64,000 nt of DNA from an uncultured Actinomycetes bacterium (GTDB lineage: Bacteria; Actinomycetota; Acidimicrobiia; IMCC26256; PALSA-610): positions 193,870 through 257,869 of the forward strand of contig CAWJBW010000004.1 in NCBI GenBank assembly GCA_963841215.1, given 5' to 3'. A model generated the notes under the pieces. It was not told where the DNA came from. It ran no database searches and worked only from the letters and a program-made list of their open reading frames with translations. Each line of letters opens with the position of its first letter. The first letter of the stretch is position 1. Position numbers and translations under genes: made by a program. Shown here piece after piece: positions 32,751-55,974 of this stretch.

Positions 32751-32757
32751 TAGGCCC

Positions 32758-33683: not shown

Positions 33684-33716
33684 CCAGCGAGAGAACCCGG
33701 CTCGCAGCAAGCCGAA

Positions 33717-35929: not shown

Positions 35930-36937
35930 CGGGACCTCCCGTTGTCACATCCGAGTTCTTCCACCAGGACTTCGACGTCGGCGAGGAGGCGCAAGACGTC
36001 GTTGAGATGCGTGCACGTCGTCGTGCCCTTGAACTCGCGGCGCACGTACTGACGCAGCTCCCCTACCGGTCGACCGACGAGACGCGCCGCGCCCGCAAGG
36101 GCGTTCGGGCACTCCTGCCAGGGCAGCACGTTCGCGGTTGCGTCGATCGCTCGGACGGTGTGGGTCGCGGCCTCGACGGTCGCGGCCAGGCCGTACTCGT
36201 GCACGACCGTCTCGACGCCGTCTTCGTCGACGTGGGAGTCGCGGAAATGGGCGTCGATGCAATATGGATCGCCCGCGACAGTGGGCGCGATCACGTCGAG
36301 CCGTCGGGCGCGCCGCGTCGAGTGCGGCGGCAGCACCGGGCGTTCGTGCCATCCGTCGGGGTCGGCGGGGTCGAGGAGCTCGGGTGCGACGGGTCCGAGC
36401 GGCGTCGGGTTCCGGCCGGTGGCGCGGATGACCTGCATCATCGACGCGTCGCCGGCCCAGCCCGCGCAGAGATCGACCTGCGCGTCGATGAACTGGTCGG
36501 GCACGGAGCGGGTCGGGAACGCGCCGGCGTGCAGTTGCGCGTACCCGGAGACGAGCACCGCGCCGGGAACGTCGTCGAGCAACATGAGCAACGGCGATGC
36601 GCCACGACCGGAGTACGGGACGACTGCATCGACCTTGGACCGGAAGCCGGGTCCGACGAGCGCACCCGTCAGACCCTGCAACGCGAGCAGTTCGGGTTCA
36701 GTGCGGAGCCCGACGAGAGAACGGTCGGTGCCGTCGACATCGAGTCTCACCCGTGCGCTCGCAGCCACGCGCGACTCGCCCGCCCGCCGGCGTCACGAGG
36801 TCGCGCGCGACGCCGTCGATCACCAGCGCGCCGAGCATCCCGTCGGGACGCGACGTGTCGATCGTGCTCGTCCGACGCGCCGAGCGGGGCACGCGGGGCG
36901 GTGTCGTCGAAGCCGGCCGTTGCGGGCCGCTGATCAC
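35926..36937 (-). CDS. DUF2889 domain-containing protein
   Basis: N-terminus ..RRTSTIDTSRPDGMLGALVIDGVARDLVT.. is in ORF 36698..36937. The body is in ORF 35926..36768 (..LPWQECPNAL..GTTTCTHLNDVLR..). One frame switch near 36770. Its stop overlaps the VOC start (ATGA). Confidence 0.65.
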
Positions 36938-37021
36938 CTTCCCGGTGACGGGCGAGACGACGACGTGGACAGCGCGGCAAGGCCGTGGAGTGTACGGCCG
37001 CGGTTCGTCAGCCGTTTCTCG

Positions 37022-37835
37022 TCACGTCGAGCGCCGGGCCCACGCCTGCACGACGCGTGGGATGCTCGACACCGTGTTCGGATCGCGCGCGTAGTCCCAT
37101 AGCTCGAGGCGCAGGCGCCCGACTTCCCTGATCGACACGCAGCTCCTGTGCGACCAGCACGCGTCGCGATCGCTTCGAACGTGATCGGCGCGAGCAACTT
37201 CACGTCACCTTCCATGGCCGCCGGCTGCACGACGCCGAACTCGACGGCGGCAAGACCTGCGTCCCGCAACATTCCCGGGAGCCGGGGGCCGATGTCGGGG
37301 TCGGCACCGCGACCTCGCACCGCGGTGCGGTAGAGATCCACGAATCGCGTGAACGCCGCGCTCGCCGGCGAACAGAACTGGCCCGAGCAGTCGACGTCTT
37401 CGACGACCATCACGCCGCCGGGTGCGAGGCGAGCCGCGAGGTGCGCCACCGCCTGCTCCGGCCGCGGAAGGTGCGACAGCAGGAACCGCGCGTAGACGAC
37501 GTCGAACCGCTCCGGCGTCGACACCGGCGCGAGCACATCCTCGACGACGGAACTCGACGTTGGCGACCGATTCGGCTTCCGCCTCGCGGCGCGCGAGGTC
37601 GAGTTTCACGTCGTCCACGTCGACACCGACAACCGAGCCCTGAGGTGCGAGCCGACCCAGCTCGAGCGTCACGTCGCCACCACCGCAGCCGACGTCGAGG
37701 CAACGCGCCTCGGGTCGCACGAGCGGCTCCAGCAACCGGTGCGTCGTGGGCCACATCACCCGGGCGAGCATGCGGAGCCGTTCCCGGCCCTGCCGTCCGC
37801 CGCGAATCACGTAGTGCGGGGCGTTGGTCGCTCAT
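37022..37835 (-). CDS. Class I SAM-dependent methyltransferase
   Basis: ..YVIRGGRQGRERLRMLARV...CLDVGCGGGDVTLELG...FDVVYARFLLSHL...LAPGGVMVVEDVD.. with tail ..LWDYARDPNTVSSIPRVVQAWARRST* after at least 3 frame switches. Confidence 0.7.
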
Positions 37836-37956: not shown

Positions 37957-38315
37957 GGGGGTGCGTGGCTTCGATCTTGGGCATCGAGGTGGGAGAAGCG
38001 AGCCGACGTCGCCGGAACGTCGTGAAAGAGCCGGCACACCTATAACTGCCAACCAAGACGACAACCGTCTGGCTCTCGCTGCCTAAGAGTTCTTAGGTAG
38101 CACGCTCACTGCAGGTCCGTCGTTCGCCTGCGTGCAGCGTCATAAAGGACGACTCACCGTCAGGCACGGCCTCGGGGCCCGACGGGACATCGAACGAGGC
38201 TTGGTTCGGTCACAGGGTGCCGATGACCTGGGGCCGGACGAGACCTCCCATCGGCTGCGCTCGGAGAAGTCCCATCAAGAGTCTGGGAGACGCGGGTTCG
38301 ACTCCCGCCACCTCC
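37957..38315 (+). ncRNA. ssrA: tmRNA (transfer-messenger RNA)
   Basis: 5' GGGGGTGCGTGGCTTCGATC... pairs with 3' ...CACCTCCA. T-arm is GCGGGTTCGACTCCCGC. The tag ORF GCC AAC CAA GAC GAC AAC CGT CTG GCT CTC GCT GCC TAA (38048-38086) encodes ANQDDNRLALAA. Overall collinear with the mycobacterial ssrA I recall. CCA is not encoded. Confidence 0.9.
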
Positions 38316-38317
38316 AC
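38295..38317 (+). repeat. Direct repeat copy 1 (tmRNA 3' end; candidate attL core)
   Basis: GTTCGACTCCCGCCACCTCCACT is identical to 50671-50693. Confidence 0.8.
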
Positions 38318-38361
38318 TCGCGGGCGTCCTGACAAGGGCTTTCGCGGCCTGCCAGGGATGG

Positions 38362-38378
38362 CGTGACACGCGTGACAC
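38362..38378 (+). repeat. Tandem CGTGACAC repeats just inside left island end (arm-site-like)
   Basis: CGTGACAC-G-CGTGACAC, 45 nt from the left direct repeat. Related to the cluster at 50523-50552. Confidence 0.4.
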
Positions 38379-38811
38379 ATGGCGACGCCCGGCACCGGAG
38401 CTCATGGCCCCGATCGGGTGCATACGTCGATGCGGCGCCGGGCGGAGAGTTCGGTCGCGAAGTGCGTCAGCGCCGGTTCGGTGATCGCGCGCCCGGCCAT
38501 CGTTCACTCGCGCTTCAGAGTCAGCTTCACCTCGTCGACCGGCTGACGCGTCATTTGGTCCCCTCCCTTCGGGTTCAGCGTGCGTGCGGTGGGCCTCGTC
38601 CGTGGTACTCCCGGTGCTCGACCTCCGTAGGATCGAAAATCCGGCCGCGTCTTCGTCAATCCCGGGCCCGATGCCGGCAGGACACTGGATCCTCCGCCGC
38701 CTCCCAATCCGTCCTCGAGAATGCTGCTTCCCCCTACGCTCCGTTCCGAACGGAGGCGCTAGAGGGCCGAGCCCGAGCATCGGAGGCGGCGGAGCGTGAG
38801 AGGAATGTGGC

Positions 38812-40056
38812 GTGCGTCTGGGTGACGTGGCCAATGCGGAAGCGCAGCAGTACGGAAAACCACTCGACGGTGTCCGCGTGCTCGCCCTGGAGCAGATGGC
38901 CGCGATGCCGTTCGCGACCCAACTGCTGGCCCGTCTCGGCGCCGATGTCGTCAAGGTCGAGCATCCGGTGCATGGAGAATCGGGGCGCGCGGCATCACCG
39001 GCGATCACGGACCCCGAAGGCCGTGTCGTCGGAGCAACGTTCCTACGGAGCAATCTCGGCAAGCGCAGCATCGGCGTCGACATACGCACCGAGGCGGGTC
39101 GCGATTTGATCCTGCGGCTCGTCCCGCGCTTCGACGTCTTCGCCGAGAACTTCAAGGCGGGCACCATCGACCGGCTCGGCCTCGGGTACGACGCGGTATC
39201 GGCCGTCCACTCTGGCGCGATCTACGTGTCCGTCTCGGGTTTCGGTGCCGACGCATCCGAGTACGGGGAGTGGCCCGCGTATGCGTCGATCGTCGAAGCC
39301 ATGTCCGGCATCTACGACTTCATGCGCCGGCCCGACGAACGTCCGCGTCCGAACCCTGTCGGCGCGCTCGGCGACATCTCGACCGCGTTGTTCTCCGTCA
39401 TCGGTGTGCTCGCGGCGTTGCGCCACCGCGACGCCACCGGCATGGGTCAACGGATCGACGTCGCGATGTACGACTCCACCGTCGCGATGACCGACATCGT
39501 CCCCAACTTCTATTCGCTCGGGTGGGAGCGTCAAGCCTCACCCGCGCCGTATCTGATCGCGTCGTTCAAGGCGAAGGACGGCTGGTTCGTCATGCAGATG
39601 GTGCGCGAGCACCAGTTCGCGGCGCTCGCCGAGCTGCTCGGCCGGCCGGAGTGGAAGACCGACCCGCGCTTCGCCGAACGAACCGGGTGGGACGTGCACC
39701 TCGACGATGTCATCCGGCCGGCGATCGAATCGTGGGCCGCCGGCATGACGAAGCGCGACGCCGCAGCTGCGCTCTCGACCGCGGGCCTCGCGGTCGGCCC
39801 GGTCCACGAGGCCGCCGAGGTCGTCGCCGATCCGCACCTCCGGGCGCGATCGATGCTCGTGGAGATGGAACGGCCGGACGGGTCGGGTCCACCGGTGCTC
39901 GTGCCGGGCAATCCGGTCAAGATGTCGCGAGTGGCCGAAGGGCCCGAACAACGTGTGCCGTGGGTCGGTGAGCACACGGCGGAGGTGTTGCGGGCCGAGC
40001 TCGGTTGTGACGACGCCGCGCTCGCGGAGCTCCGCGCCGCCGGCGTCATCGCCTGA
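38812..40056 (+). CDS. CaiB/BaiF family III CoA-transferase
   Basis: Intact 414 aa: LDGVRVLALEQMAAMPFATQLLARLGADVVKVE...FLRSNLGKRSIGVD...VFAENFKAGT... Confidence 0.8.
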   Translation: MRLGDVANAEAQQYGKPLDGVRVLALEQMAAMPFATQLLARLGADVVKVEHPVHGESGRAASPAITDPEGRVVGATFLRSNLGKRSIGVDIRTEAGRDLILRLVPRFDVFAENFKAGTIDRLGLGYDAVSAVHSGAIYVSVSGFGADASEYGEWPAYASIVEAMSGIYDFMRRPDERPRPNPVGALGDISTALFSVIGVLAALRHRDATGMGQRIDVAMYDSTVAMTDIVPNFYSLGWERQASPAPYLIASFKAKDGWFVMQMVREHQFAALAELLGRPEWKTDPRFAERTGWDVHLDDVIRPAIESWAAGMTKRDAAAALSTAGLAVGPVHEAAEVVADPHLRARSMLVEMERPDGSGPPVLVPGNPVKMSRVAEGPEQRVPWVGEHTAEVLRAELGCDDAALAELRAAGVIA

Positions 40057-40137
40057 TGCACCACCCCCTCCTCGAAGTTGCGTGGCGAAAGGTGCTGACA
40101 GGACCCTTCCCCACGCAAGAGCGAGGTGGTGTGGCGT

Positions 40138-40158
40138 AATCTGACGACCCGTCAGATT
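40138..40158. promoter_or_regulatory. 9-bp inverted repeat with 3-nt spacer upstream of acyl-CoA dehydrogenase (operator candidate)
   Basis: AATCTGACG-ACC-CGTCAGATT ends 30 nt before the ATG at 40189, just upstream of the GGAGG ribosome-binding site. Confidence 0.4.
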
Positions 40159-40188
40159 CGCGATTACGAGACAGGCGCCGGAGGCACC

Positions 40189-41394
40189 ATGGATTTCGAT
40201 TTCTCCCCGGAGGAGCGCGCGTTCGCCGACGAGGTCGACCAATTCCTCGACGCGAACGACGATCCCGACGTCTTCGACGTCACGCGGGAGAACATGGCGC
40301 AGATCGTCGACACGCCGGCGCGCCGTGCGTTCATGAAGAAGCTTGCGGATCGCGGCTGGCTCGGGATCACCTGGCCGAAGCAGTACGGCGGACAGGACGG
40401 CGAGGGTGTCTACGAATTCCTGCTGAACGAAGCGCTCGCCGGCCGCGGCGGACCTCAGATCGGCAAGGGCGTCGGGATCATCGGCAAGACCCTTATCCGC
40501 GTCGGCAGCGACGAGCTGAAGCAGGAGTTCCTGCCCAAGATCCTCGACGCCGAGGTCGAGTTCGCGGTCGGGTACAGCGAGCCCGACGCCGGTTCCGACG
40601 CCGCGTCCATGAAGCTGAAGGCGGTCCGCACCGAGCGGCACGGCGTTTCCGGCTGGTTGCTCAACGGCCAGAAGACGTGGACGACGTCGGCGCACTTCGC
40701 GGAGTGGTACTGGGTCGGCGCCCGAACCGACCCGGACGCGCCGAAACACGCTGGCATCACCTTGTTCCTCGTCCCGCTCGACGACCCCGGCATCACGATC
40801 AACGGCATCTGGACGATGGGCGACGAACGGACGAACGACGTCTTCTTCGACGATGTGTTCGTTCCCGACTCGCACGTCGTCGGCGCGGTCAACAGCGGCT
40901 TCAAGTACATCTCTTCGGCGCTCGACCTCGAACGCTTCACGATGTTCACCTTCTCGCCCATGCAGCAACGGCTCGATGTGCTCTGCGACTACGTGCGCGA
41001 GACCGAGGTCGATGGTGAACCGCTGAAGAACGATCCCATCGTCCGTTCGCAGATCGCGCAGCTGGTCACGCAGGCGGAGGTCGGACGCGTGCTCGGCCTG
41101 CGGGTGGTGGATGCGTCCGTGAGATCGGAGACGAAGGGCGCGCCGCCGCCCACAGTCGAGGCGTCGGTCTACAAGCTGTACGCGACTGAGTTCTCGCGAC
41201 GCTTGGCGAACGCGTCGATGGACATCGGCGGTCCGGGAGCGCAACTCCGAGTGCGCACGGACGAAGCGCCCATGAAGGGCCGGGCGGAATCCACCTACCG
41301 CTACACCGTGATCGACACCATCGGTGGCGGCGCGTCGGAGATCCAGAAGAACATCATCGCCCGCCGGGCCCTCGGCCTCCCGAAGAACTTCTGA
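40189..41394 (+). CDS. Acyl-CoA dehydrogenase (canonical catalytic C-terminus)
   Basis: MDFDFSPEERAF...GYSEPDAGSDAASMK...GQKTWTTSA...TIGGGASEIQKNIIARRALGLP. Internal ATG of ORF 40126..41394. Confidence 0.8.
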   Translation: MDFDFSPEERAFADEVDQFLDANDDPDVFDVTRENMAQIVDTPARRAFMKKLADRGWLGITWPKQYGGQDGEGVYEFLLNEALAGRGGPQIGKGVGIIGKTLIRVGSDELKQEFLPKILDAEVEFAVGYSEPDAGSDAASMKLKAVRTERHGVSGWLLNGQKTWTTSAHFAEWYWVGARTDPDAPKHAGITLFLVPLDDPGITINGIWTMGDERTNDVFFDDVFVPDSHVVGAVNSGFKYISSALDLERFTMFTFSPMQQRLDVLCDYVRETEVDGEPLKNDPIVRSQIAQLVTQAEVGRVLGLRVVDASVRSETKGAPPPTVEASVYKLYATEFSRRLANASMDIGGPGAQLRVRTDEAPMKGRAESTYRYTVIDTIGGGASEIQKNIIARRALGLPKNF

Positions 41395-41400
41395 TCGGTC

Positions 41401-42571
41401 GTGCCGGAAACACCGATGCTCGACGGGATCATGGTGCTTGACCTGGCTTCGGTCGGGCCGGCCGCGCACGCGTCGCGGTGGCTCGCCGACTACGGCGCGG
41501 ACGTCGTGAAGGTCGCGCCGGTGCCGAAGCACGGCAGAGTGCAGATCGTGCCGCCCTTCCACGCCTACGGCGGTCACCGCGGCATGCGTCGCATTCTCGT
41601 CGACCTCAAGCAGGACACAGGTCGCCGCCGCGTTCCTCCGTTTGGCTGCCGGTGCCGACGTGTTGATCGAGAGCTTTCGGCCCGGCGTCGTCGGATCGCT
41701 GGGCATCGATTTCGACGCCGTCCGGGCGGTGAACCCCGGCATCGTGTACTGCTCGACGAGCGGATACGGCCAGAACGGCCCACACGCGACGCGCGCCGGC
41801 CACGATCTCAACTACCTCGCGATCGGCGGATTCCTCGCGACCACACACGCGCGCGCCGACGGCGGGCCGCCGGTTCCGGGCGCGACGGTCGCCGACAGCG
41901 CGGGCGGCGGCATGCACGCAGTGATCGCGATCCTCGCCGCGCTGGTACGTCGCGGTGCGACCGGAACCGGCGCATACCTCGACGTCGCCGCGGCCGACGG
42001 AGTGCTCGCGCTGATGTCACTCGCCGTCGACGAGTACCTCGCCACGGGCGCCGTCCCACAACCGCGACACGGACTGCTCACCGGGCGCTATGCGTGCTAC
42101 GACAACTATGAAGCTGCCGACGGTGGTTGGTTGACCGTCGCTGCGATCGAGCCACACTTCTGGGCGAACCTCTGCCGGCTCGTCGGTTGTGAGCAGTGGA
42201 TCCCGCACCAGATGGACGACGCCGTGCAGGACGAGATTCGCGCCGATCTGCGGGCCGCGTTCAAGACGAGAACGCGCGACGAGTGGACCGAGATGCTTGC
42301 GCCGGCCGACACGTGTGTCGCGCCCGTGCTGTCGGTGCCCGAGGTCGTCGAGGACGCGCAGTACGCGGCGCGCAACGCCTTCGTCGACGCCGAGCACGCA
42401 ACCGCGGGTCGCTTCCGCCAGGTCGGACCCGTGCTCGCCGGACAGGCGCGCCCGACAAGTGCGTACGAGCTGCGCGACGCGACCGCGACCGACGTCGACG
42501 AGCTCCTCGCCGGTGCCGGGTTCGCGGTGGAGGAGATCGAGCAGTTGCGCGCCGACGGAGTCGTCGCGTGA
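41401..42571 (+). CDS. CaiB/BaiF family III CoA-transferase
   Basis: LDGIMVLDLASVGPAAHASRWLADYGADVVKV.., then ..ADVLIESFRPGV...CSTSGYGQNGP...GHDLNYLA.. One frame switch near 41625. Confidence 0.75.
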
Positions 42572-43077
42572 CGGATCTCCCCGACGACGTGCACAAGCTG
42601 ATCGACCAGCCGCAGTACGAGATCGACGGCGAGTTTCCCGTCGAGCAGGGCTACATCTGGACATCGTGCGCGTCGGTCGAGAACGGCAACCCGCTCTTCT
42701 GGGACGGAGCCGCCGCCGACGAGATCACCAAGGGACCGATCGCGCCGCCGACGATGGTGTCGGTGTGGTTCCGTCCGCACCACTGGCGGCCGGGACGCAG
42801 CGAACCGCAAGTCCCCCTGCAGGTGCACTTCGACTTGAAGGAACGCTTCGAGCTGCCAGAAGCCGTGATGACGGACAACACGTTGGTCTTTCACGAGCCG
42901 GTGCGGGTGGGTGATCGCCTCCGCACGCACCAGGTGCTGCGTTCGGTGAGCGAGGAGAAGACGACGAAGCTCGGCACCGGCCGCTTCTGGGTGATCGACG
43001 TCGTGTACCACAACCAGCGCGACGAGCTCGTGTGCGTCGAGTCGTACACCGGGTTTGGTTACAGGAGACAGCTGTGA
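42568..43077 (+). CDS. Hotdog-fold dehydratase subunit (FAS1-like/MaoC N-terminal-type)
   Basis: GTG start overlaps the upstream stop (GTGA). ..EQGYIWTSCASVENGNPLFWD...LVFHEPVRVGDRL...GRFWVIDVVYHNQ.. Confidence 0.65.
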   Translation: MTDLPDDVHKLIDQPQYEIDGEFPVEQGYIWTSCASVENGNPLFWDGAAADEITKGPIAPPTMVSVWFRPHHWRPGRSEPQVPLQVHFDLKERFELPEAVMTDNTLVFHEPVRVGDRLRTHQVLRSVSEEKTTKLGTGRFWVIDVVYHNQRDELVCVESYTGFGYRRQL

Positions 43078-43553
43078 GCGAGCGTCGTCTGCTCTTCAGC
43101 GACGTGCGCGAAGGCGACGAGCTGCCCCGACTCACGCACGAGGTCACGTCGTCGACCGTCGTGCTGGGCGCGCTCGCGTCACGCGACTGGCGACCGATGC
43201 ATCACGACTATCACTTCGCGACCGAACGCAACGGCACGAAGGACATCTTCTTGAACACGCCGAACCAGGCGGCGTGGTTCGAGCGGTATCTCACCGACTG
43301 GACCGGACCGAAGGGCCGCCTCGGTCGCTTGAAGTTCCGCATGCGCGGCTCCGTGTTCCCCGGCGACATCATGGAGCTGCACGCGGTCGTGACGAAAGTG
43401 GAGCAGGACGACACCGGCTGCGGCTGGGCCGAACTCGACGTGACCTTGCGCGCAGCCGGCGAGATCGCAACGACCTGCGAAGCGCGTGTCGCGTTGCCGG
43501 TCTCCGACGACGACAACCCGTGGACCCGCCGCGCCGACGCGTGGCGCCCCTAA
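43074..43553 (+). CDS. MaoC-like hotdog-fold dehydratase subunit
   Basis: GTG start overlaps the upstream stop (GTGA). ..LGALASRDWRPMHHDYHFA...GRLKFRMRGSVFPGD.. Confidence 0.65.
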   Translation: MSERRLLFSDVREGDELPRLTHEVTSSTVVLGALASRDWRPMHHDYHFATERNGTKDIFLNTPNQAAWFERYLTDWTGPKGRLGRLKFRMRGSVFPGDIMELHAVVTKVEQDDTGCGWAELDVTLRAAGEIATTCEARVALPVSDDDNPWTRRADAWRP

Positions 43554-43579
43554 CAACGACAGCGAGAACAGCGAGAGCG

Positions 43580-44707
43580 ATGGACCTCGACTTCACCGAC
43601 GAACAGGAGATGCTGCGAGAGACAGTGCGCGGCATCTGCGAGAAGCACGCGTCGCTCGCGATCGTGCGCGAGGTCGAAGACGACCCGCTGGGCTATCCCG
43701 ACTCGTTCTGGGCGCAGCTCGCCGAGGCGGGCCTGGTCGGCCTCACGATCCCGGAGGAGTACGACGGCTCCGCGATGACGATGCTCGACGCAGTCGTCGT
43801 CTACGAGGAGTTCGGCCGGGCGCTCGCGCCTTCACCGCACTTCGTCAGCTCGGTGCTCTGCAGCGGCGTGCTCGAACGCGCGGGTAACGACGCGCAACGC
43901 GACGAATGGCTGCGACGTATCGCCGGTGGCGACGGCATCCTCACCCCGGCGTGGCTCGAGCCCGACGGCGGGTTCGGACCGCGCGGCGTGCGGCTGCGGT
44001 GCGAGTCGGATGGCGACTCGTTCGTGCTCACCGGCACGAAGCGGCACGTCCGCTTCGCGCGCGCCGCCGACGGCTTCATCGTGCTCGCGCGCACCGGAGT
44101 GCAGCCCGACGACATCGACCTGTTCCTCGTTCCTCGCGATGCCGACGGCGTCACGCTCACACAGCAGATGACCGTCGCGTCCGACACCCAGTACCGCGTC
44201 GACTTCGACGGTGTGCGGGTGCCGGCCTCCGCCCGCATCGGGCGCGCGGGCTCGGGCTGGAAAACCTGGGACGCGACGATGCGCGACGCCATCATCCTCC
44301 TCGGTGGCTACGCCATGGGTGGTGCGGTCCACGCGCTCGACATCACGGTCCAGTACGCCAAGGACCGGCACCAGTTCGACAAACCGCTCGGCGCGTTCCA
44401 GGCGCTTGCTCACTACCTCGCGGACGCCAAGTGCACGGTCGACGGCGGGCGCACCCTCGTGTGGGAAGCGGCATGGGCGCGCGACAACGATCGTCCCGTC
44501 GGCCGGCTCGCACCCATGGCCAAGCTCTTCGCGACGCAGACGTTCAGGGATGTCACGGCGATGGCGCAACAGATCTTCGGAGGTGTCGGGTTCACGGTCG
44601 AGTACGACATCCAGCTGTACTTCCGGCGCGCCAAGGTCCTGCAGCTCGACTGGTACGACACTCGTTACCTCGAACAGCTCGTCGCGGCCGACGTGCTCGA
44701 CGGCTGA
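43580..44707 (+). CDS. Acyl-CoA dehydrogenase family protein lacking the canonical GGxSEI C-terminal motif (possible non-catalytic partner subunit)
   Basis: MDLDFTDEQEMLRETV...GTKRHVRFA...IFGGVGFTVEYDIQLYFRRAKVLQLDWYDTRYLEQLVA.. Intact. Confidence 0.7.
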   Translation: MDLDFTDEQEMLRETVRGICEKHASLAIVREVEDDPLGYPDSFWAQLAEAGLVGLTIPEEYDGSAMTMLDAVVVYEEFGRALAPSPHFVSSVLCSGVLERAGNDAQRDEWLRRIAGGDGILTPAWLEPDGGFGPRGVRLRCESDGDSFVLTGTKRHVRFARAADGFIVLARTGVQPDDIDLFLVPRDADGVTLTQQMTVASDTQYRVDFDGVRVPASARIGRAGSGWKTWDATMRDAIILLGGYAMGGAVHALDITVQYAKDRHQFDKPLGAFQALAHYLADAKCTVDGGRTLVWEAAWARDNDRPVGRLAPMAKLFATQTFRDVTAMAQQIFGGVGFTVEYDIQLYFRRAKVLQLDWYDTRYLEQLVAADVLDG

Positions 44708-44744
44708 GTATCCGGCGCACGATCGACGCGTGTACGGTCCGAGC

Positions 44745-46146
44745 ATGCGAGGCATCCTCTCCGCCGGTGGGTACGTGCCCTTCCGCCGGCTCGACCGGTC
44801 GCAGATCGGCGCCACCTTCGGCACCGGTGGCGGCAAGGGCACGCGTGCGGTCGCCGGTTACGACGAGGACACGACGACGATGGGCGTGGAGGCCGCGCGC
44901 TTCACACTGCGGGCGGCGCCGGCTGTCCCCTCCGCGTTGTGGTTCGCGACCGCCGAGCCGGCCTATCTCGACAAGAACAACGCGTCGACGATCCACGCCG
45001 CGTTGCGGCTCGACACACTCGTCCCCGCGTTCGACTTCGGCGGCGCGCTGCGCTCGGGCGTCGGTGCGCTGCGCGCCGCGCTCGAAGGTGACAGAACGGT
45101 GCTCGTCGTCGCCGCGGATCTTCGCGGCGGGCTCCCGACGAGCGGCGACGAGGCGCAGACCGGCGACGGCGCGGCCGCGATTCTCACGGGTTCCGACGCC
45201 GCCGGTCCGTTGCTCGCCGAGTACCTCGGCGGCGCGAGCGCGACGGAAGAGTTCCTCGAACGGTGGCGCACGCCGGGCTCCACCCGTTCCCGGCAGTGGG
45301 AGGAACGCTTCGGCGAGGTGAAGTACGGCCCCCTCGTCGACCAGGCGTGGAACAGCGCGCTGAAGGCCTCCGACCTCTCACCCGAGCAGGTCGACCGCGT
45401 CATCGTCACGGGTTTGCACGCGCGCGCGGTTCGGGGCGCGATCGCGCGGCTCGGCACCGCGAAGGAGTCGCTCGTCGACGATCTCTCCTCGAGCGTCGGG
45501 AACACCGGTACCGCGCACGCGGCGTTGTTGTTGACCAGCGCGCTCGAAGCCGCCGCGCCCGGTCAGATCATCGGTCTCGTCGTCCTGGCCGACGGCGTCG
45601 ACGTCTTGCTGTTCCGGACGACCGATGCGATCGCGGGATACGCACCGGCGCGAGCCGTGAAGACCCAGATCGAGAACTGCGCGCCGATCGGGTACGGCAA
45701 GTTCCTGTCGTGGCGCAACGTCGTCACCGTCGAGCCACCGCGCCGGCCGGAACCGGATCGCATCTCGGCATCGGTGTCGGGTCGGAACGAGGAGTGGAAG
45801 TACGCGTTCGTCGGCTCACGCGACCGCGGCACCGGCGACCTGTACCTGCCACCGTCGCGGCGTCGCTCGCGGTGACGCCGTCGACGACATGGAGCCGGCG
45901 CCGATGGCCGACGTCCAGGGAACCGTCGCGCTGCTCACCGTCGACCGCATCGCGTACTCGCCGAGCCCTCCGATCACGTTCGCGGTCGTCGACTGGGACG
46001 GCGGCGGGCGTCTGCCGGTCGAGCTCACCGACGCGGACCCCGGCGACGTCGAGATGGGCGGCCGGGTGGAGATGACCTTCCGGCGCTTGTTCACGTCCGA
46101 CGAGATCCACAATTACTTTTGGAAGGCGCGGCCCGTCCGCGGCTGA
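44745..46146 (+). CDS. Thiolase-superfamily HMG-CoA-synthase-like domain fused to a DUF35/OB-fold domain
   Basis: MRGILSAGGYVPFRRLDRSQI...AVAGYDEDTTTMGVEAAR...GNTGTAHAALLL.. The C-terminus ..GTVALLTVDRIAYSPSPPITFAVVDWDGGGRLPVELTD..GGRVEMTFRRL.. is in ORF 45889..46146. One frame switch near 45860. Confidence 0.6.
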
Positions 46147-46161
46147 GACACGGGAGACGGC

Positions 46162-47362
46162 ATGGGATCGCATGGCATACGAGATCGCGTGGCGATCGTC
46201 GGCATGGGGTGTACGCCGTTCGGCGAGCACTGGAACAAGGGCACCGATGACCTCCTCATCGACGCCGCGCGGGAGGCGTTCGGGTCTGCGGGCGTCGAGA
46301 AGGGCGACGTCGACGCGTACTGGCTCGGCACCGCGATGTCGGGGATGAGCGGCATGGCGCTCGCTCGGCCACTGCAGCTGCACGACAAGCCCGTCACGCA
46401 CGTCGAGAACTTCTGTGCGACGGGTTCGGAAGCGTTGCGCAACGCCGCCTACGCCGTCGCGAGCGGCGCATACGACGTCGCGATGGCGATCGGAGTAGAG
46501 AAGGTCAAGGACAGCGGCTACCAGGGCCTCGTCGGCGCCGCGAAGACTCCGTCCGACGGCACCGGCCGCACGCTCACGGCCGCCGCGATGTTCGCCATGT
46601 GCGCGCCCGGCTACGGAAGGAAGTACGACCTCGGTGAGGAAGAGATGCGCGAAGTGCTCGCGCGACATCGCCTGGAAGAACCACTACAACGGCGCGCGGA
46701 ACCCGCGCGCCCAGTTCAAGCGCGAGGTTTCGATGGAGACCATCTGCGGCGCGCCGCTCATGGCGGGCGGGCTCGGTGTCTACGACTGCTCCGGTGTCGC
46801 CGACGGATCGGCGGCGGCCATCATCGTGCGGGCCGAGGACGCGCTCCGATACACGGACAAGCCGCTCTATGTGAAGGCGCTCTCCCTCGTCGCCGGCAAT
46901 TGTTCCGGCAACGCCGACCCCGAGTACGACTACACGACGTTCCCCGAGATCGCCGCGACGGGCCATGACGCGTACGCGCAAGCCGGTGTCACCAACCCGC
47001 GCGGAGAGATCGCGATGGCCGAAGTGCACGACTGCTTCACTCCTGCGGAGTTGCTCATCTACGAAGACCTGCAGTTCGCCGAACCCGGTACCGCGTGGAA
47101 GGAGGTCCTTGACGGGACCTTCGACCTACACGGCGACCTGCCGGTGAACCCCGACGGCGGACTCAAGAGTTTCGGTCACCCGGTCGGCGCGTCCGGGTTG
47201 CGGATGATGTTCGAAGCATGGTTGCAGCTGCGCGGCGAGGCGCCGGAGGAGCGGCGGATCGGCACCCTCGAGAACCGGAAACTCGCGCTCACCCACAACC
47301 TCGGCGGATATCCCGGAGAGATGGTGTCGTTCGTCTCGATCCTCGGTACCGAGCCGTCCTGA
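46162..47362 (+). CDS. Thiolase-like protein (SCP-x / lipid-transfer-protein Ltp type)
   Basis: VAIVGMGCTPFGEHW...ENFCATGSEALRNAAYAVASGAYDV...EVHDCFT...NPDGGLKSFGHPVGASG.. One frame switch near 46665. Confidence 0.75.
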
Positions 47363-47585
47363 CGCGGGACGCACGTCACTCGGTCGTGGCCGCTACAAGC
47401 ACGCCAACAGCAACCCGAACGCGACGATCGGGACACAGGCACTGACGCGCGACCAGTACATGAACGGCGCTGAATCTCGGAACCGCTCTGCCTCGTCGAC
47501 AACTCTCGAGACCGACGGCGTTCGGCGGCCAGCGACGAGCCAGGCACGTCGTGTTCCAGCAGGTTGAGAGGGGGAGCTTCCCGAG

Positions 47586-49940
47586 GTGGGTGCGACCGTG
47601 AGTGAAGGACTGTGCGCAGGCATTCGAGTGCTCGACCTCGCCGATGATCCGGGCGCGCGCTCGGCGCGCGTACTCGGCGACCTCGGCGCCGACGTCGTGC
47701 GCGTGGTGCCACTCGAGGGCGATCCCCTCGCGCGCCGCTCTGCCGACGAGCTCGCGTGGAACGCGGGCAAACGGGTGCTCGGGCTCGACGCCGGCGATCG
47801 GGCACTCGACGCCTTGCTCGAAACGGCCGACGTCGTGTTCGCGACGCCGCACGCGCCCGGTTTCCATCATCTCGATCCGGCGCGCGCGCCGCAGGCGGCG
47901 TGGATCTCGATCACTCCGTTCGGGCTCGACGGGCCGCACGCGAGCTGGCGCGCGAGCGACCTCGGCGTCATGGCCGCGAGCGGCAACATGTTCTCGACCG
48001 GACACCCGGGGCGCGCGCCGGTGCGCGCGTCCGAACCGGCGAGCCACTGCCACACTGGCGGTGAAGCCGCTTACGCTGCGCTGAGCGCGCTGGCCGCGGG
48101 CCGCACCGGTGTGGTCGACGTCTCGATGCAGGAAGTCGTGCTGATCGCGAACATGAGCGGGCAGTACGCCTACCCGCACACGGGCAACCGCGGCCGCCGG
48201 CTCGGTGCCAACATTGGCCGCGCGCGCGAGATCTGGCGCACGAGAGACGGGTGGGTGAGCTTCGGTCTGCGCGGCGGCAAGGCGCGTGTGCCGACGCTGG
48301 AACTGCTGACCCGCCTCGTGACACAAGAGCAGATCCCGGGCGGCGACGTGCTCGCGGCACGTGACTGGCGCGCGTACAACCCCAACACTGTCACCGACGA
48401 GGAACTGCGCGCCATCGAAGCGCCGACGGCTGAGTACTTCTCGCGTCACACGATGGGCGAGCTGTTCGAGATCGCGTGCGAGAACAACTGGATGCTCGCG
48501 CCGACGATGTCGCCGCGCGAGATCGTCGGCAGCAAGCAGCTCGAAGCGCGCGAGTTCTTCCGCCCCTTGGGCGAGATCGATCGGTTCCCGACCGCGTTCG
48601 TGAAAATCACGGGTGCCGCCTCGGCGCATCCGTCGGGCCCGGCGCGGCGCGTCGACAAGGATGTGGCATTCGAGGCGACCGGGCCCAACGGCATCGCGCG
48701 ACCGTCGGGCGAAGGCGCGTGGGCGGGCACGAACCTCCTCGAGTTCGGATCCGGCGCGGCGGGGCCGATCGCGGCGCGCTACTACGTCGAGCAGGGCGCG
48801 ACCGTGCTGCGCGTCGAGTCGGTGTCACGACCTGACTTCCTTCGTGTGTACGCGCTCGGGCCCAACAACCCGCACGGGTTGGAGGGCTCCGATCTCTTCG
48901 ACACGCTCAACGTCGGCAAGCGCAGCGTGACCCTCAACCTCAAGGATCCCGCCGCGGCCGCGCTGATGCGGCGCTTGATCGTCGAGTGGGCCGACGCCGT
49001 TTCCGAGAATTTCGCGCCGCGGGCGATGAAAGGCTTCGGCCTCGACTATGAGTCGCTTGTCGCGATCAAGCCCGACCTCGTCATGATCTCGGCATGCCTC
49101 AACGGGCAGACCGGCCCCTTCAAGGACTACCCGGGGTTCGGAAGCCAGGGCGCCGCGCTTTCGGGCTTCACCTTCCTCACCGGCTGGCCCGATCTCGAGC
49201 CAGTCGGCCCCTTCGGCACGATCACCGACTCGCTTGCACCCCGGTACGTGGCCACCGCGCTCGCGGCAGGACTCCTGTATCACCGCCGGACCGGGCGCGG
49301 AGTACACCTCGACCTCTCGCAGGTCGAAGCGGGGATCTGGTCGCTCGCGCCGTGGATCGTCGACTACGCGCTCGGCCACACCCTCGGCGAGCGAGCCGGG
49401 AACCGGTCACCGTTCGCGGTGCCACACGGCGTGTTCCCGTGCGCGTCCGAAGGCGAACTCGACGACCGGTGGGTCGCGGTCGCCTGCTGGACCGACGACG
49501 ACTGGAGCCGTCTCGCGCAGATCATCGGCGTCAACCAGCCGGCGCTCGCGACCTTCGAGGCCCGTTCCGCGCGCGTCGACGACGTCGAGACCATGGTCGC
49601 GGCATGGACGTCGACACGAACGCGCGCCGAGGTGGCGACCACGCTGCAGGCCGACGGCATCGAAGCCGTACCAGTCGCCGACTTCGGCGACCTCCACGAC
49701 GATCCACAACTCGCGCACCGGTCCCACTGGATCGAGGGCAAGCACCCAGTGCTCGGGCCACGTGGATACGAACGCAACGGCTTCCGGCTGCCCGGAGACG
49801 CCGGCGGCTACACGCGCACCCACTCGCCACTGCTCGGCGAGGACAACGACTGGGTAGTGCGCGGTGTGCTGGGTCTCGACGACACGGAGATCGCGTCGCT
49901 CGTCGAGGTCGGCGCGGTCGAGGTCTCGGAGTCGAAGTGA
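47586..49940 (+). CDS. Tandem fusion of two family III (CaiB-type) CoA-transferase domains
   Basis: Intact 784 aa. Domain 1 starts ..GIRVLDLADDPGARSARVLGDLGADVVRVV.. Domain 2 starts ..GTNLLEFGSGAAGPIAARYYVEQGATVLRVES...SENFAPRAMKGFG.. Confidence 0.75.
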   Translation: MGATVSEGLCAGIRVLDLADDPGARSARVLGDLGADVVRVVPLEGDPLARRSADELAWNAGKRVLGLDAGDRALDALLETADVVFATPHAPGFHHLDPARAPQAAWISITPFGLDGPHASWRASDLGVMAASGNMFSTGHPGRAPVRASEPASHCHTGGEAAYAALSALAAGRTGVVDVSMQEVVLIANMSGQYAYPHTGNRGRRLGANIGRAREIWRTRDGWVSFGLRGGKARVPTLELLTRLVTQEQIPGGDVLAARDWRAYNPNTVTDEELRAIEAPTAEYFSRHTMGELFEIACENNWMLAPTMSPREIVGSKQLEAREFFRPLGEIDRFPTAFVKITGAASAHPSGPARRVDKDVAFEATGPNGIARPSGEGAWAGTNLLEFGSGAAGPIAARYYVEQGATVLRVESVSRPDFLRVYALGPNNPHGLEGSDLFDTLNVGKRSVTLNLKDPAAAALMRRLIVEWADAVSENFAPRAMKGFGLDYESLVAIKPDLVMISACLNGQTGPFKDYPGFGSQGAALSGFTFLTGWPDLEPVGPFGTITDSLAPRYVATALAAGLLYHRRTGRGVHLDLSQVEAGIWSLAPWIVDYALGHTLGERAGNRSPFAVPHGVFPCASEGELDDRWVAVACWTDDDWSRLAQIIGVNQPALATFEARSARVDDVETMVAAWTSTRTRAEVATTLQADGIEAVPVADFGDLHDDPQLAHRSHWIEGKHPVLGPRGYERNGFRLPGDAGGYTRTHSPLLGEDNDWVVRGVLGLDDTEIASLVEVGAVEVSESK

Positions 49941-50099
49941 GCTGAGTCGCCGGCGGTCGGCACCAAGGCTGCGGGTTCGGCACTTCGTCCCGGGGACGCG
50001 TCGTCTGGGGCGACGATGCCGAGTACCTGTCGCGCGACCTCGGTGTACCGTTTCTCATCCCCGAAATTTCAACTCAACGAGTTGTTCCCGCCACGCGGC

Positions 50100-50390
50100 G
50101 AAGCGGGCCCGGCGTCAGTCACTCCACACCGACTCGTTCAACGAGGCGTCGCGTTCCCGACCGAGCACTCGACCCGCATCGCCCTCCGCACGCAACATGT
50201 CATCGCGGACGAGACCGGTACCTCCCACGTCGCGGATCCACTCGGCGGCTCGTGGTACGTCGCGGAACTCACAGATGAGCTCGAGCGACGCGCAGAGATC
50301 GTTTTCGACCAGCTCGCCGAGCTTGGTACGGGATCCATGCTCGACGGCGTCGTCGAAGCGATCAGCGGATGGGAGGTCTATGTCCAAGCT
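50100..50390 (+). pseudogene. Fragment of a methylmalonyl-CoA mutase-type large subunit
   Basis: ..QSLHTDSFNEA.. in one frame, then ..PTEHSTRIALRTQHVIADETGTSHVADPLGGSWYVAELTDELE..LGTGSMLDGV.. in ORF 50016..50453. Only about 100 aa of a protein normally longer than 500 aa, with no start. Confidence 0.5.
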
Positions 50391-50522
50391 GTTGTGGACG
50401 CAGAGGCAGGACATTGGCCCTTCGCCACGGTTGGCCGAGACCGACCGACTTGACGCGCTCTATCCAGACGCGTCAGCACCACGTCCCGCGACCGGCGATC
50501 GAGGCCTCAACAATGCGACTGT

Positions 50523-50552
50523 CGTGACACGCGCAGGACACGCGGGACACAC
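50523..50552 (+). repeat. GTGACACGCG / GGACACGCG / GGACACAC direct-repeat cluster just inside right island end (arm-site-like)
   Basis: CGTGACACGCGCAGGACACGCGGGACACAC, about 120 nt from the right direct repeat. Same strand and same core as 38362-38378. Confidence 0.4.
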
Positions 50553-50670
50553 AAGTGCCACAGAATCCCGGGATCCGTCGGTACATGGAGGACAAGAGCG
50601 GCACACCGAAAACTGTGTCTGACCTGGGCTGACGCGCCTGAGCAGGAAGAACGCGAATCGCGGGACGCCT

Positions 50671-50693
50671 GTTCGACTCCCGCCACCTCCACT
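50671..50693 (+). repeat. Direct repeat copy 2 (displaced tmRNA 3' end; candidate attR core)
   Basis: GTTCGACTCCCGCCACCTCCACT. The upstream flank GCCTG cannot pair with CCCGC, so there is no T-stem and no gene. Confidence 0.8.
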
Positions 50694-50704
50694 GTGAATG
50701 CCCT

Positions 50705-50734
50705 GGTCACGGCGCTACGTGTGGCGCCGTGGCC
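50705..50734 (+). terminator. GC-rich hairpin immediately after the right direct repeat (possible original ssrA terminator)
   Basis: GGTCACGGCGC-tacgtgtg-GCGCCGTGGCC. Only a weak TTT follows, 4 nt later. Confidence 0.35.
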
Positions 50735-50800
50735 ACAGTTTGGTCACAGAGGCCGAGCCGGCGGCGGCAAGAGACCGACCAGATGACTGACGCCGCGCGG

Positions 50801-51343
50801 TCAATGCCCAGAGAGAAGGTGCTTCACCGTCGCAAGGGCCAGGGCGATCGCGAGCGCGACGAGTCCGAAGAGAACTGACGCGGCGCGTGTGCGTCCGCTG
50901 GCCCGTTCGACGACATACGCGACAGCTCCGATCATGAGGGCCAGGACAAGGCGCACTACCTCCTGTTCGGTGTCTTCCCGCAACAGCAAGACCGGCACAC
51001 TTGCAACGGCGGCCACGACGGCAACGCCGGCGAGCTCCGACAACGCCTCGACACGATCCCAACCACGGAGTGGCCCGCGGCTGAGACCTTGCGTCGCGAG
51101 CACGAACGCGAACCAGTGCGCGACGGCCAAACCGATGGATGTCCCCCACAAGATCGCGACCAATTCCCAGCCGACGGGTCCGTGAACAGTCCCACCGTCG
51201 TCGTCGCCCGCAGGGAGCGCGGCGAGCTCGGCGAGGAGAACGATCGAGACATACAACATCATCGCCGTCGCGTCTCGCCAGACCCTCCGGCGCTCTGCCG
51301 CGTCGGTATCCGGCCTCACTTCCCCTACGTGCGAGTACCTCAC
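50801..51343 (-). CDS. Hypothetical integral membrane protein
   Basis: 180 aa with about 5 hydrophobic segments (..MMLYVSIVLLAELAAL.., ..WELVAILWGTSIGLAVAHWFAFVLA.., ..VLFGLVALAIALALA..). Confidence 0.5.
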   Translation of the reverse strand: MRYSHVGEVRPDTDAAERRRVWRDATAMMLYVSIVLLAELAALPAGDDDGGTVHGPVGWELVAILWGTSIGLAVAHWFAFVLATQGLSRGPLRGWDRVEALSELAGVAVVAAVASVPVLLLREDTEQEVVRLVLALMIGAVAYVVERASGRTRAASVLFGLVALAIALALATVKHLLSGH

Positions 51344-51535
51344 TGATGCAGAATCCCCTCACTTACGCGGCTATGCACGCGGTGCGACGCGTGCACCTTG
51401 GATGCCGAGTGCCGAGCCGGCGCCGCGCGACGACGAGCCGCTCGCGGGAGATGCGCAATCGCGATGAGCTGGACCCCGTTGACACGCACACCGAGCGAAC
51501 GTCGTGCAGTCGGGTGAGCACAATCATTGTCGAGG

Positions 51536-53212
51536 TCACTCGGTGGAGTCATCGTTCTGGTCTTGTGTCGCGATCCATGCCCGCGCATCGCGATGCGCCT
51601 GTTCGAGTGCGGCGCCGACTTGTTCGGTTGCGCGGTAGAGGTTCTCCGGGCCGATGAATTCGGTGACGCCGGTGACGCGGAACTGCTCGGCAAGCGGCTC
51701 GTTGAGCGAGACGATGACGAGCTTCGATCCGACGGTCGCCAGACTGGCCGCGTACCGCCGGAGGACGTCGATGAACGTCGAGCCGACGTCGCTGCGTTCG
51801 CGGAGTCGCAGGATCACGACCGTGTTTCGCGACGACCGTGTCACCTCGGGGAGCGCGGCTTCGAAGATCGGGGCAGCGGCGAAGAACAGGCTGCCGTAGG
51901 GCTGGAGGACGACGACGTCGTTGGCGGGGAGGCTTGCGGGCGGATCGATCTCGACGACGTGTCCGTCCTCGGTGAAGATCCGTCGTTTGACGCTGACGTG
52001 GTTCGACTGGCCGATGACATACAGCGCCACCGAGAGCGCAACACCTGCGACGACCGCGTACTGCAACGGGATGGCCATCGTGAGGACGAACGTCGTCACC
52101 AACACGATCCGCTGGCCGGTGCCGGTTCTCCAGACCGAGCCGAGATCGCTCGGCTTGATCGTCCGGTAACCGACGAGGATCAACAGGGCCGCCAATGCAG
52201 GCATCGCGATGTTCCCGATCGCATCGCCGAAGGCGACCAGAAGGACGGCCATCACGACACCCGCGACGACGAGTGAGGTGCGCGTCCGGGCGCCGGCAGC
52301 CTTGTTCAACGACGAGGCCGAGACGGACCCGCCGACCGGCATCCCTTCGAGCACACCCGACGCGATGTTGGCGATGCCTTGGCCGGTGAAGTCACGCGAG
52401 GCGTCGGGATAACTGCCGTCTTCGTTGGGGAAGTTGGCGGAGATGCCCGCACCTTGGACGAGCCCGACCAGCGCGAGCGAAACCGCGGGCACGATGAGAG
52501 ACGGAACGAGGCTGAGCTCCGGAAGTAGAGCGTCCGGCAGCGTGCCCAAGGTCGCGCCCAGGTCATCGACCGTCGCGACGTCCCAGCCGAGCGCGTTCGC
52601 GGTTGCCGAGGTGATGACGACGCCGACGACGAGACCGAGGGCTCCGAGGCGCGTTCGTTCCAATGCGACGATCAGCACCATCGTGCCGAGACCGATCGCG
52701 ACCGACTGTCCGTCGAGCCGGCCCGGGTGTAGGAGCGTGTCGAGGGCGCGGGTGAGACGCGAATCTTGAGGAGAGTTGTAACCGGTGAAGCTCCCCAGTT
52801 GCCCGAGGATGATGTTCACGCCGACCGCGTTGATGAACCCGACCATCACTGCGTTCGACACGAATCGCAGCACGGAGCCGAGCTTGAGCAACCCCGCCGC
52901 CACCATGACGACGCCTGTCAGCAACGAGAGCGTGGCCAGCGCGCGGGCCGGGTCGGTCGCGTCGTGCACCGTGTCCACGTCCGCGACGAGGATCGCCATC
53001 GCGCCGGTTCCTTGCACGGCCATGAACGCAGACGAGGTTGCGAAGGCGCCGGCGACCGTGCCGACCATGTAGGCGTTGAGCCCAGCGAGCGGGTTGACCC
53101 CGGCGAGGAGCCCGGTTGCGAGACCGTCGGGCACGCTCTCGACGCCGAGCACCGCGCCGGCTGGGATGTCCTGTCCGAGGTGCGCCAAGACGGCCGGCCT
53201 CTTGCGACCCAT
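51536..53212 (-). CDS. SulP family inorganic anion transporter with C-terminal STAS domain
   Basis: Intact 558 aa. Many TM segments, ..VPDGLATGLLAGVNPLAGLNAY.., and a STAS-like tail ..VVVLQPYGSLFFAAA...VVILRLRERSDVGSTFIDVL.. Confidence 0.85.
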   Translation of the reverse strand: MGRKRPAVLAHLGQDIPAGAVLGVESVPDGLATGLLAGVNPLAGLNAYMVGTVAGAFATSSAFMAVQGTGAMAILVADVDTVHDATDPARALATLSLLTGVVMVAAGLLKLGSVLRFVSNAVMVGFINAVGVNIILGQLGSFTGYNSPQDSRLTRALDTLLHPGRLDGQSVAIGLGTMVLIVALERTRLGALGLVVGVVITSATANALGWDVATVDDLGATLGTLPDALLPELSLVPSLIVPAVSLALVGLVQGAGISANFPNEDGSYPDASRDFTGQGIANIASGVLEGMPVGGSVSASSLNKAAGARTRTSLVVAGVVMAVLLVAFGDAIGNIAMPALAALLILVGYRTIKPSDLGSVWRTGTGQRIVLVTTFVLTMAIPLQYAVVAGVALSVALYVIGQSNHVSVKRRIFTEDGHVVEIDPPASLPANDVVVLQPYGSLFFAAAPIFEAALPEVTRSSRNTVVILRLRERSDVGSTFIDVLRRYAASLATVGSKLVIVSLNEPLAEQFRVTGVTEFIGPENLYRATEQVGAALEQAHRDARAWIATQDQNDDSTE

Positions 53213-53293
53213 CGCAGCGCTCCCGTGTTATGTAGGACTCGTTACGAGCGCGCCATCGCCACGCGCAGCCTCAGCCTTTCGCACCCGCGCATG

Positions 53294-53738: not shown

Positions 53739-53750
53739 CTGCGCTCCCAG

Positions 53751-54224: not shown

Positions 54225-54288
54225 GTGGCGCGCACGGTGTCGAGAACGACCACCGCACTATCGAGTGTCGAGCACGTCCCCTGCCGCA

Positions 54289-54308
54289 GCTATCCCGATT
54301 CGGCAGGG
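54289..54308 (-). promoter_or_regulatory. 19-nt box, copy 1 (faces the 54224 membrane-protein operon)
   Basis: Minus strand reads CCCTGCCGAATCGGGATAGC, 64 nt upstream of the start at 54224. Confidence 0.45.
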
Positions 54309-55939: not shown

Positions 55940-55974
55940 GAGACTCGAGTGTCGCTACCAGATCGCTCGTATCG

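Follow-up and report, generated by a model that had tools for sequence, protein, structure and literature searches.

A probable CIME-like island without an integrase gene in the tmRNA gene ssrA of an uncultured actinobacterium

In an uncultured Actinomycetes bacterium (PALSA-610) the 3' end of the tmRNA gene ssrA occurs a second time 12.4 kb downstream of the gene. Is the DNA between the two copies an integrated element, and how could it have come there if it carries no integrase gene? We addressed this question for a window of 64,000 nt, which is the whole stretch of DNA analyzed (assembly GCA_963841215.1, contig CAWJBW010000004.1, positions 193,870–257,869 of the forward strand). An original prediction, made by reading the letters of this window, had proposed an island, either old and immobilised or mobilised in trans, bracketed by a 23-bp direct repeat of the tmRNA 3' end. 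Our analysis indicates that the segment 38296–50693 probably represents an integrated site-specific integrative element in reduced form, which lost its integrase gene int (and xis), and that it forms an island in ssrA which resembles the cis-mobilisable elements (CIMEs). By definition, a CIME has lost its genes for integration and transfer and kept the attachment sites attL and attR (PMC5704250).

The repeat was located by a scan of the window with the 23-mer GTTCGACTCCCGCCACCTCCACT. With up to three mismatches allowed, exactly two matches were obtained, at 38296–38318 and at 50671–50693, and the expectation by chance was 0 in 100 shuffles. Both copies named in the original prediction are real; the coordinates of the second were exact, and the first is shifted rightward by 1 nt from the proposed 38295–38317. 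A dispersed repeat unrelated to ssrA had been named as one finding that would speak against an island, and the 23-mer occurs in the window only at these two sites. The gene and the two cores are as follows.

37957..38319, + strand: intact ssrA (tmRNA gene), putative integration target (ARAGORN; Rfam RF00023)
38296..38318, + strand: attL core, identity block in common with attR (exact 23-mer)
50671..50693, + strand: attR core, displaced 3' fragment of ssrA (exact 23-mer; similarity reaches 50664 with 2 mismatches)

ARAGORN placed the tmRNA at 37957–38317 with the tag peptide ANQDDNRLALAA, and Rfam RF00023 matched 37957–38319 with 134 bits over the full model (positions 1–374). The attL core extends from the final base of the 5' T-stem through T-loop, 3' T-stem, acceptor strand and discriminator to 2 nt beyond. 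The full repeat comprises 30 nt with 2 mismatches, GACGC[GG/CT]GTTCGACTCCCGCCACCTCCACT, where GG stands in the gene and CT in the second copy. A second tmRNA gene at 50671–50693 was rejected: ARAGORN called none, and the Rfam match reached 5.7 bits (E 4.6). The 5' flank of this copy is GCCTG, compared with the T-stem strand GCGGG of the tmRNA gene, in agreement with the earlier statement that the second copy is not a gene. A scan of IMG/VR with the 23-mer yielded nine matching contigs, all of them unrelated tmRNA carriers. These matches represent the conserved tmRNA end and are therefore uninformative on the element. An AT-rich IMG/VR contig (L008) contains at 3040–3080 a perfect tmRNA 3' end GGACGCGGGTTCGACTCCCGCCACCTCCACT, yet no tmRNA was detected there by ARAGORN; this copy may be a phage attP or part of a divergent phage tmRNA.

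Upstream of the attR core a group of short direct repeats was observed.

50524..50571, + strand: integrase-proximal arm with four direct repeats and a CACAGAATCCCGG box (spacing common to relatives)

The repeats start at 50526 (GACACG), 50537 (GACACG), 50546 (GACACA) and 50557 (GCCACA), corresponding to the consensus G(A/C)CAC(G/A). They are 11, 9 and 11 nt apart and are found 146, 135, 126 and 115 nt upstream of the core (TTCGAC). Arm repeats at conserved spacing were detected in seven loci, the window and six loci from related uncultured actinobacteria. In L023 (ENA ERZ25039554 contig_31130; metagenome-assembled genome (MAG) MFD05942.bin.2.133) their positions are identical to those in the window. 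L024, L025 and L026 are three JGI contigs which were retrieved by a pattern consisting of two arm repeats and the core at the right distance; L027 and L028 were obtained via an integrase homology search and look-ups. In these five contigs the repeats lie 144–148, 133–137, 125–128 and 116–117 nt from a stand-alone tmRNA 3' end. Relative to the window they are shifted by 1–2 nt in L024, L025, L026 and L028, and L027 shows 144, 133, 125 and 117 nt. The approximately 100 nt from the repeats to the core are not conserved in an alignment of the window with the other loci. Since repeats at the same distance from the core recur in six related loci, the second copy appears to be a genuine attachment site and no chance repeat. 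The GACACG repeats are predicted to be arm-type binding sites of an integrase (or Xis).

A tyrosine integrase (PF00589) is encoded in three of the relatives, L024, L027 and L028. The gene reads toward the repeats and stops 4–800 nt upstream of them. L027 additionally contains an HTH_17/excisionase-like (Xis-like) gene. The L027 integrase possesses about 80 residues N-terminal to its SAM-like core-binding domain; an arm-binding domain was not detected by Pfam in this protein. The attL/attR signature proposed in the original prediction is consequently borne out by arm repeats that are conserved in seven loci, three of which carry a tyrosine integrase at the matching position. Besides int and the Xis-like gene, no rep or tra gene was seen in the relatives, the contigs of which are too short to show them. 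At L025 81–692 and L028 1047–1247, in the interval from int to the arm repeats, genes for a Fic-domain protein and an antitoxin of the VbhA type were found, possibly an addiction module.

In the window itself every search for an integrase was negative, in line with the original prediction, in which none had been recognised. Six-frame Pfam scans of 38319–38830 and 49900–50700 revealed no integrase, excisionase or transposase domain and only a fragment of a MM_CoA_mutase domain. The L024 integrase fragment and the two small open reading frames (ORFs) next to it gave no tblastn match in the 64-kb window. Among all six-frame ORFs of the window, the best match to an HMM of 67 homologous integrases had an E of 0.034 (9 bits); the positive controls L024, L027 and L028 scored 242–329 bits. 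L023 was also negative with this HMM. The position occupied by int in L024, L027 and L028 is taken in the window by the following fragment, which adjoins the arm repeats.

50148..50366, + strand: methylmalonyl-CoA mutase gene fragment (MM_CoA_mutase profile positions 336–402 of 512)

This fragment, which accounts for the gene remnant noticed earlier at the right end, looks like a deletion or rearrangement scar. The CACAGAATCCCGG box that follows the repeats is common to the window and L023. The integrase-bearing contigs have the somewhat different box GACACGAAATCGGGG in its place. Since the window and L023 do not share their arm box with the integrase-bearing contigs, their cognate integrase was not seen.

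The other end of the segment carries a further arm.

38319..38400, + strand: integrase-distal arm at attL (homology to the L023 attL arm)

It contains a TGAC..GGNCTTTCGCGNCCT box (TTTCGCG at 38340–38346) and two GACAC(G/A) repeats at 38365–38370 and 38374–38379. The homologous attL arm of L023 shows the TTTCGCG box together with three GACACG repeats. An arm of the window type is absent from the related ssrA locus L021. On the far side of the attR core a hairpin follows, which had likewise been recognised before.

50704..50735, + strand: GC-rich hairpin (perfect 14-bp stem, −27 kcal/mol, z −3.07)

It is probably the original ssrA terminator. A consensus terminator scan did not call it because it has no T-run. 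Three other attR sites were folded; a comparable hairpin after the core was obtained for L028 and none for L024 and L023. GC-rich terminator-like palindromes are seen 3' of the core in L025–L028, of which folding confirmed that of L028 alone.

Both ends of the segment thus resemble att sites of one recognisable ssrA-targeting element family. As read from these loci, the layout of the family would be ssrA, attL, cargo, (xis), int, four arm repeats, core (attR) and ssrA terminator. With respect to the definition of CIMEs, both cores are present and attL and attR are retained at the sequence level, the segment contains no integration or transfer genes, and integrase-bearing elements with the same type of att site exist in L024, L027 and L028, where the relationship concerns the attR arm only. 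The island matches a CIME because its cargo is kept between two att sites without a recombination module.

The following course of events would explain these observations. An element family would target the T-loop and 3' end of the tmRNA gene in an uncultured lineage of Actinomycetota. In its attP, a copy of the tmRNA 3' end would stand between arms carrying GACACG repeats, and a tyrosine integrase would have recombined attP with ssrA. Strand exchange may have taken place in the region of the T-loop, which the imperfect inverted arms of the T-stem enclose. As a result attL would hold a regenerated ssrA, and the displaced original 3' end of the gene would now lie, with its terminator, 12.4 kb away at attR. 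The int module would then have been lost at this locus, with a truncated mutase gene now standing at the arm repeats. Left between two att sites that look intact would be genes for CoA-transferases, acyl-CoA dehydrogenases and hydratases, together with the thiolase/HMGCS-like/DUF35 genes. Such an island would be incapable of autonomous movement; any movement would need the cognate integrase of a related element elsewhere or a tandem partner (accretion). A tandem partner is not visible in the window. Excision is predicted to yield a circle with the junction GGGACGCCTG-core-CGCGGGCGTCC; the corresponding products would be attB, ...GACGCGGGTTCGACTCCCGCCACCTCCACT joined to GTGAATGCCCTGG, and circular attP, ...GGGACGCCTGTTCGACTCCCGCCACCTCCACT joined to CGCGGGCGTCCTGAC.

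The age of the island was judged by comparison with L020, a metagenome-assembled contig (ENA ERZ25039469 contig_28653) whose overlap with the window stops at window position 41770. L020 has the same arrangement of ssrA, attL arm and first island genes, and its SmpB is 95% identical over the part compared. Upstream of the island the substitution identity is 92–93% in each 500-nt bin from 20.4 to 38.0 kb (about 17 kb). The ssrA genes differ by four substitutions and one indel, the last difference being located at 38231. From 38231 to 41770, which covers the first 3.5 kb of the island, the identity rises to approximately 99.6%, except for a patch of about 2% divergence at 38886–39540. Accordingly placed between 38231 and the island, the discontinuity is found where a site-specific junction would be expected. 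Because the island is approximately 99.6% identical over its first 3.5 kb and the flank only 92–93%, the comparison suggests a recent transfer. At least its first 3.5 kb would be far younger than the split of the two hosts. The description of the island as old and immobilised fits poorly with these values, unless L020 is chimeric. It may well have been mobile recently, and it might still be moved by an integrase acting in trans or by a tandem partner.

Several findings weigh against this interpretation. The near-identical tract is visible only up to 41770, and its right boundary lies beyond view. The jump in identity could be caused by homologous recombination anchored in ssrA or by a strain switch of the assembler. 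The third and fourth arm repeats of the window (GACACA, GCCACA) deviate slightly from the consensus, which could reflect decay or a different integrase subfamily in common with L023. The contigs of the integrase-bearing members are cut before attL, so that the link of the window attL to the family is provided by L023 alone. A reconstructed empty attB junction, consisting of the tmRNA 3' end and the flank from 50694 onward, found no match in the JGI metagenomes, and none of the relatives found has an unoccupied ssrA joined to the right flank of the window. In L017 and L018, which are about 85% identical to the right flank (51530–64000), synteny breaks exactly at the SulP stop (51529–51535) and ssrA is not nearby. 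Finally, GC content, GC skew and tetranucleotide composition of the segment show no contrast with the rest of the window; the comparison of composition inside and outside, which had been suggested as a check, is uninformative in this case.

Some of these findings are what one would expect of a fixed relic, the alternative which survives best. Here the element would have integrated in the same way and would now be immobile, the near-identity with L020 being due to ordinary homologous recombination at ssrA or to a chimera. We consider this possible, with some doubt. It is in line with 64 kb of DNA without an integrase, with two of four arm repeats being off consensus, with the native-like composition and with the unseen right boundary of the high-identity tract. 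Moreover, ssrA constitutes a 360-nt near-identical stretch which suits a homologous crossover or a strain switch during assembly. In contrast, the switch from 92–93% to approximately 99.6% coincides with the expected site-specific junction. Furthermore, the L023 island shares the arm of the same subfamily (CACAGAATCCCGG) and the exact spacing between repeats and core, as would be expected of sites that are still under selection.

L023 also bears on a second alternative. Its SmpB is 81% identical to that of the window, and it possesses its own tmRNA with the tag ANNDDNRLALAA. A second tmRNA 3' end is located 4.6 kb downstream (L023 15267–19927), and the cargo in between consists of PNPOx, methyltransferase, sulfotransferase and RibD_C genes without an integrase. 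This unrelated cargo between like ends indicates that ssrA is a recurrent insertion site with exchangeable cargo. The occurrence of the same genes downstream of ssrA in relatives lacking the repeat had been named as a result contradicting an island; L021 and L023 carry DNA 3' of ssrA that differs from that of the window. An active satellite mobilised in trans would go one step further. Its cognate integrase would reside on another element in the same genomes and would excise and integrate it regularly, and ssrA would be a site of cassette exchange. The two unlike integrase-less cargos of the window and L023 with ends of the same subfamily and identical arm-core spacing would suit such a satellite, as would the near-identical island in two hosts about 7% apart. 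We regard it as unlikely, in view of the absence of a cognate integrase with matching arms from the 64 kb of genome visible, of the other arm box (GACACGAAATCGGGG) in the integrase-bearing members and of the mutase fragment, which resembles a deletion scar more than a designed end. The broader proposal that ssrA serves as a cassette-exchange site at which integrase-less blocks (12.4 kb in the window, 4.6 kb in L023) are routinely moved between species as satellites of an unseen helper is rather improbable. If true, whole metabolic operons would cross species as satellites of helper elements.

A chance or dispersed repeat within ordinary chromosomal DNA can practically be dismissed: the 23-mer belongs to the 3' end of tmRNA, which is universally conserved, and recurs in many unrelated tmRNAs, and the composition of the interval is native-like, but two copies in 64 kb stand against 0 expected, the second copy lies at a fixed distance from arm repeats that accompany integrases in relatives, and the relatives differ in the DNA after ssrA.

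The loss of int and xis from an integrated element, our preferred explanation, has parallels in several known systems. Like the CIMEs of the ICESt1/ICESt3 family of Streptococcus thermophilus, the island keeps its att sites and has integrase-bearing relatives on the same target, the 3' end of a conserved RNA gene. It differs from the streptococcal CIMEs in host phylum, integrase family and target, which is ssrA here and fda or a tRNA gene there. For the streptococcal elements cis-mobilisation by accretion was shown experimentally, whereas the island of the window is known from sequence alone. The genomic islands in ssrA (ssrA-GIs) of Dehalococcoides are bounded by ssrA and a repeat of about 20 bp of its 3' end and carry metabolic cargo; 15 of them, which have no integration module, have been proposed as CIMEs (PMC3146451). 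In common with the window they show insertion in the T-loop region, metabolic cargo, members without a module and near-identical islands in diverged hosts. Their recombinase is a CcrB-like serine recombinase at attL, in contrast to the tyrosine integrase at attR with tandem arm repeats observed here, and they form tandem island arrays, none of which is seen in the window.

The islands catalogued by Islander are characterised by a target regenerated at one end, a displaced 3' fragment at the other end and a tyrosine integrase, which catalyzes integration (PMC4383910). The family described here likewise uses a tyrosine integrase. In the window the target is regenerated and the displaced 3' fragment forms a direct repeat, but a tyrosine integrase is not encoded within the island. 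Island finders that search for an integrase first would probably miss it.

The arm-type sites P'1–P'3 of lambda Int are an established feature of attP organisation. Like a lambda-type attP, the family described here has tandem repeats approximately one helical turn apart in the int-side arm, about 115–150 nt from the core, and the L027 integrase resembles lambda Int in being extended on the N-terminal side of the core-binding domain. Repeat sequence, number of repeats (four) and target are different from those of lambda. Apparently, this ssrA-targeting tyrosine-integrase family of uncultured soil Actinomycetota is undescribed. Its attP architecture comprises four phased GACACG repeats 115–148 nt from a tmRNA-derived core, and its cargo-only derivatives carry complete catabolic gene clusters. 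If the near-identity in hosts about 7% apart is real, integrase-less islands still aid the horizontal spread of metabolic pathways. The concept of CIMEs and module-less ssrA islands is already established, and the finding is a useful example of it and no surprise.

The cargo of the segment is a co-directional cluster of acyl-CoA metabolism genes, as determined by GC3 frame analysis, Pfam and NCBIfam. Every sizeable ORF in 38.8–50.5 kb encodes an enzyme of acyl-CoA metabolism or is a gene fragment. Upstream of the mutase fragment the following features were assigned.

38812..40056, + strand: family III CoA-transferase (Pfam PF02515, E 5e-91; NCBIfam)
40126..41394, + strand: acyl-CoA dehydrogenase, PimC-like (Pfam Acyl-CoA_dh N, M and C; NCBIfam TIGR03204 below cut-off)
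41401..42571, + strand: family III CoA-transferase with a +1 frameshift near 41625 (PF02515 positions 1–76 and 81–353 in two frames)
42600..43553, + strand: hydratase pair (Pfam PF13452, PF01575)
43590..44707, + strand: acyl-CoA dehydrogenase, PimD-like, start approximate (Pfam from residue 181 of ORF 43055–44707; NCBIfam; frame plot)
~44745..45875, + strand: HMG-CoA-synthase/KAS-III-like protein (Pfam PF08541; NCBIfam)
45889..46146, + strand: DUF35 OB-fold protein (Pfam; NCBIfam)
46162..47362, + strand: thiolase, split by a frameshift (Pfam; NCBIfam)
47586..49940, + strand: 784-aa protein with two family III CoA-transferase domains (Pfam PF02515, E 1e-107, two stretches)

The extra base at the 41625 frameshift is not present in L020. 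The hydratase pair consists of a HadA/FAS1_DH-like domain in the C-terminal part of ORF 42196–43077 (PF13452, E 1e-12) and a MaoC-like domain in ORF 43032–43553 (PF01575, E 8e-6, just under cut-off). The Pfam matches of the trio at 44745–47362 were PF08541, PF01796, PF00108 and PF22691. The HMGCS-like, DUF35 and thiolase genes lie side by side; such a trio is known as an archaeal-type thiolase/HMGCS complex. The tiny ORFs described earlier at the left end do exist. Nothing marks them as genes, their sole homologue being located in the near-identical copy of L020. A prophage or prophage remnant was rejected, as Pfam and NCBIfam gave metabolic genes only and the arm patterns and the family integrase had no matches in IMG/VR. 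The plasmid collection had no match to the island. The genes int, xis, rep and FtsK/SpoIIIE-like tra by which an actinomycete integrative and conjugative element (AICE) is recognised are lacking from the island of the window.

The homologues of SmpB and of SulP in the right flank belong to uncultured Actinomycetota, many of them represented by long-read soil MAGs under ENA ERZ250395xx; the nearest named relatives of these sources are Acidimicrobiia. The SulP homologues are 88–96% identical, and the contig L016 stops at the same point as the synteny with L017 and L018. The 840 bp from attR to SulP have no homologue in the fetched loci and include a 180-aa hydrophobic ORF (50801–51343). The region 50694–62000 has the lowest GC content (0.635–0.66) and the most deviant tetranucleotide profile of the window.

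On the left side, smpB is located at 30398–30862, and the order smpB, thioredoxin, desaturase, helicase, methyltransferase and ssrA is syntenic across the relatives. In the window the genes for thioredoxin, desaturase, helicase, glyoxalase, DUF2889 and methyltransferase are found between smpB and ssrA. The gap from smpB to ssrA (30398–30862 to 37957) measures 7 kb in the window, 4.5 kb in L023 and 1.2 kb in L021; therefore, the DNA upstream of ssrA is variable, too. Approximately 1 kb of the window (36006–36993), containing most of the DUF2889 gene, is missing from L020, and in one JGI relative the methyltransferase gene directly follows the helicase gene. The stretch, located just 5' of ssrA, has the appearance of a small insertion or deletion specific to the strain. 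The DUF2889 protein was used as an anchor for the left flank; its closest homologues in the GTDB genomes are 75% identical and stand in unrelated contexts with no ssrA.

Genes split by frameshifts or truncated occur both inside and outside the island, namely the methyltransferase gene at 36934–37810, the CoA-transferase gene at 41401–42571, the thiolase gene at 46162–47362 and the DUF2252 gene at 54508–55134. As the relatives are long-read MAGs, assembly errors may account for the split genes as readily as real pseudogenes. A match to the Rfam family ASdes (TB sRNA; 52.7 bits) at 33074–33141 on the minus strand lies antisense within the desaturase ORF 32663–33904 and may be due to a conserved coding sequence of the desaturase instead of an sRNA.

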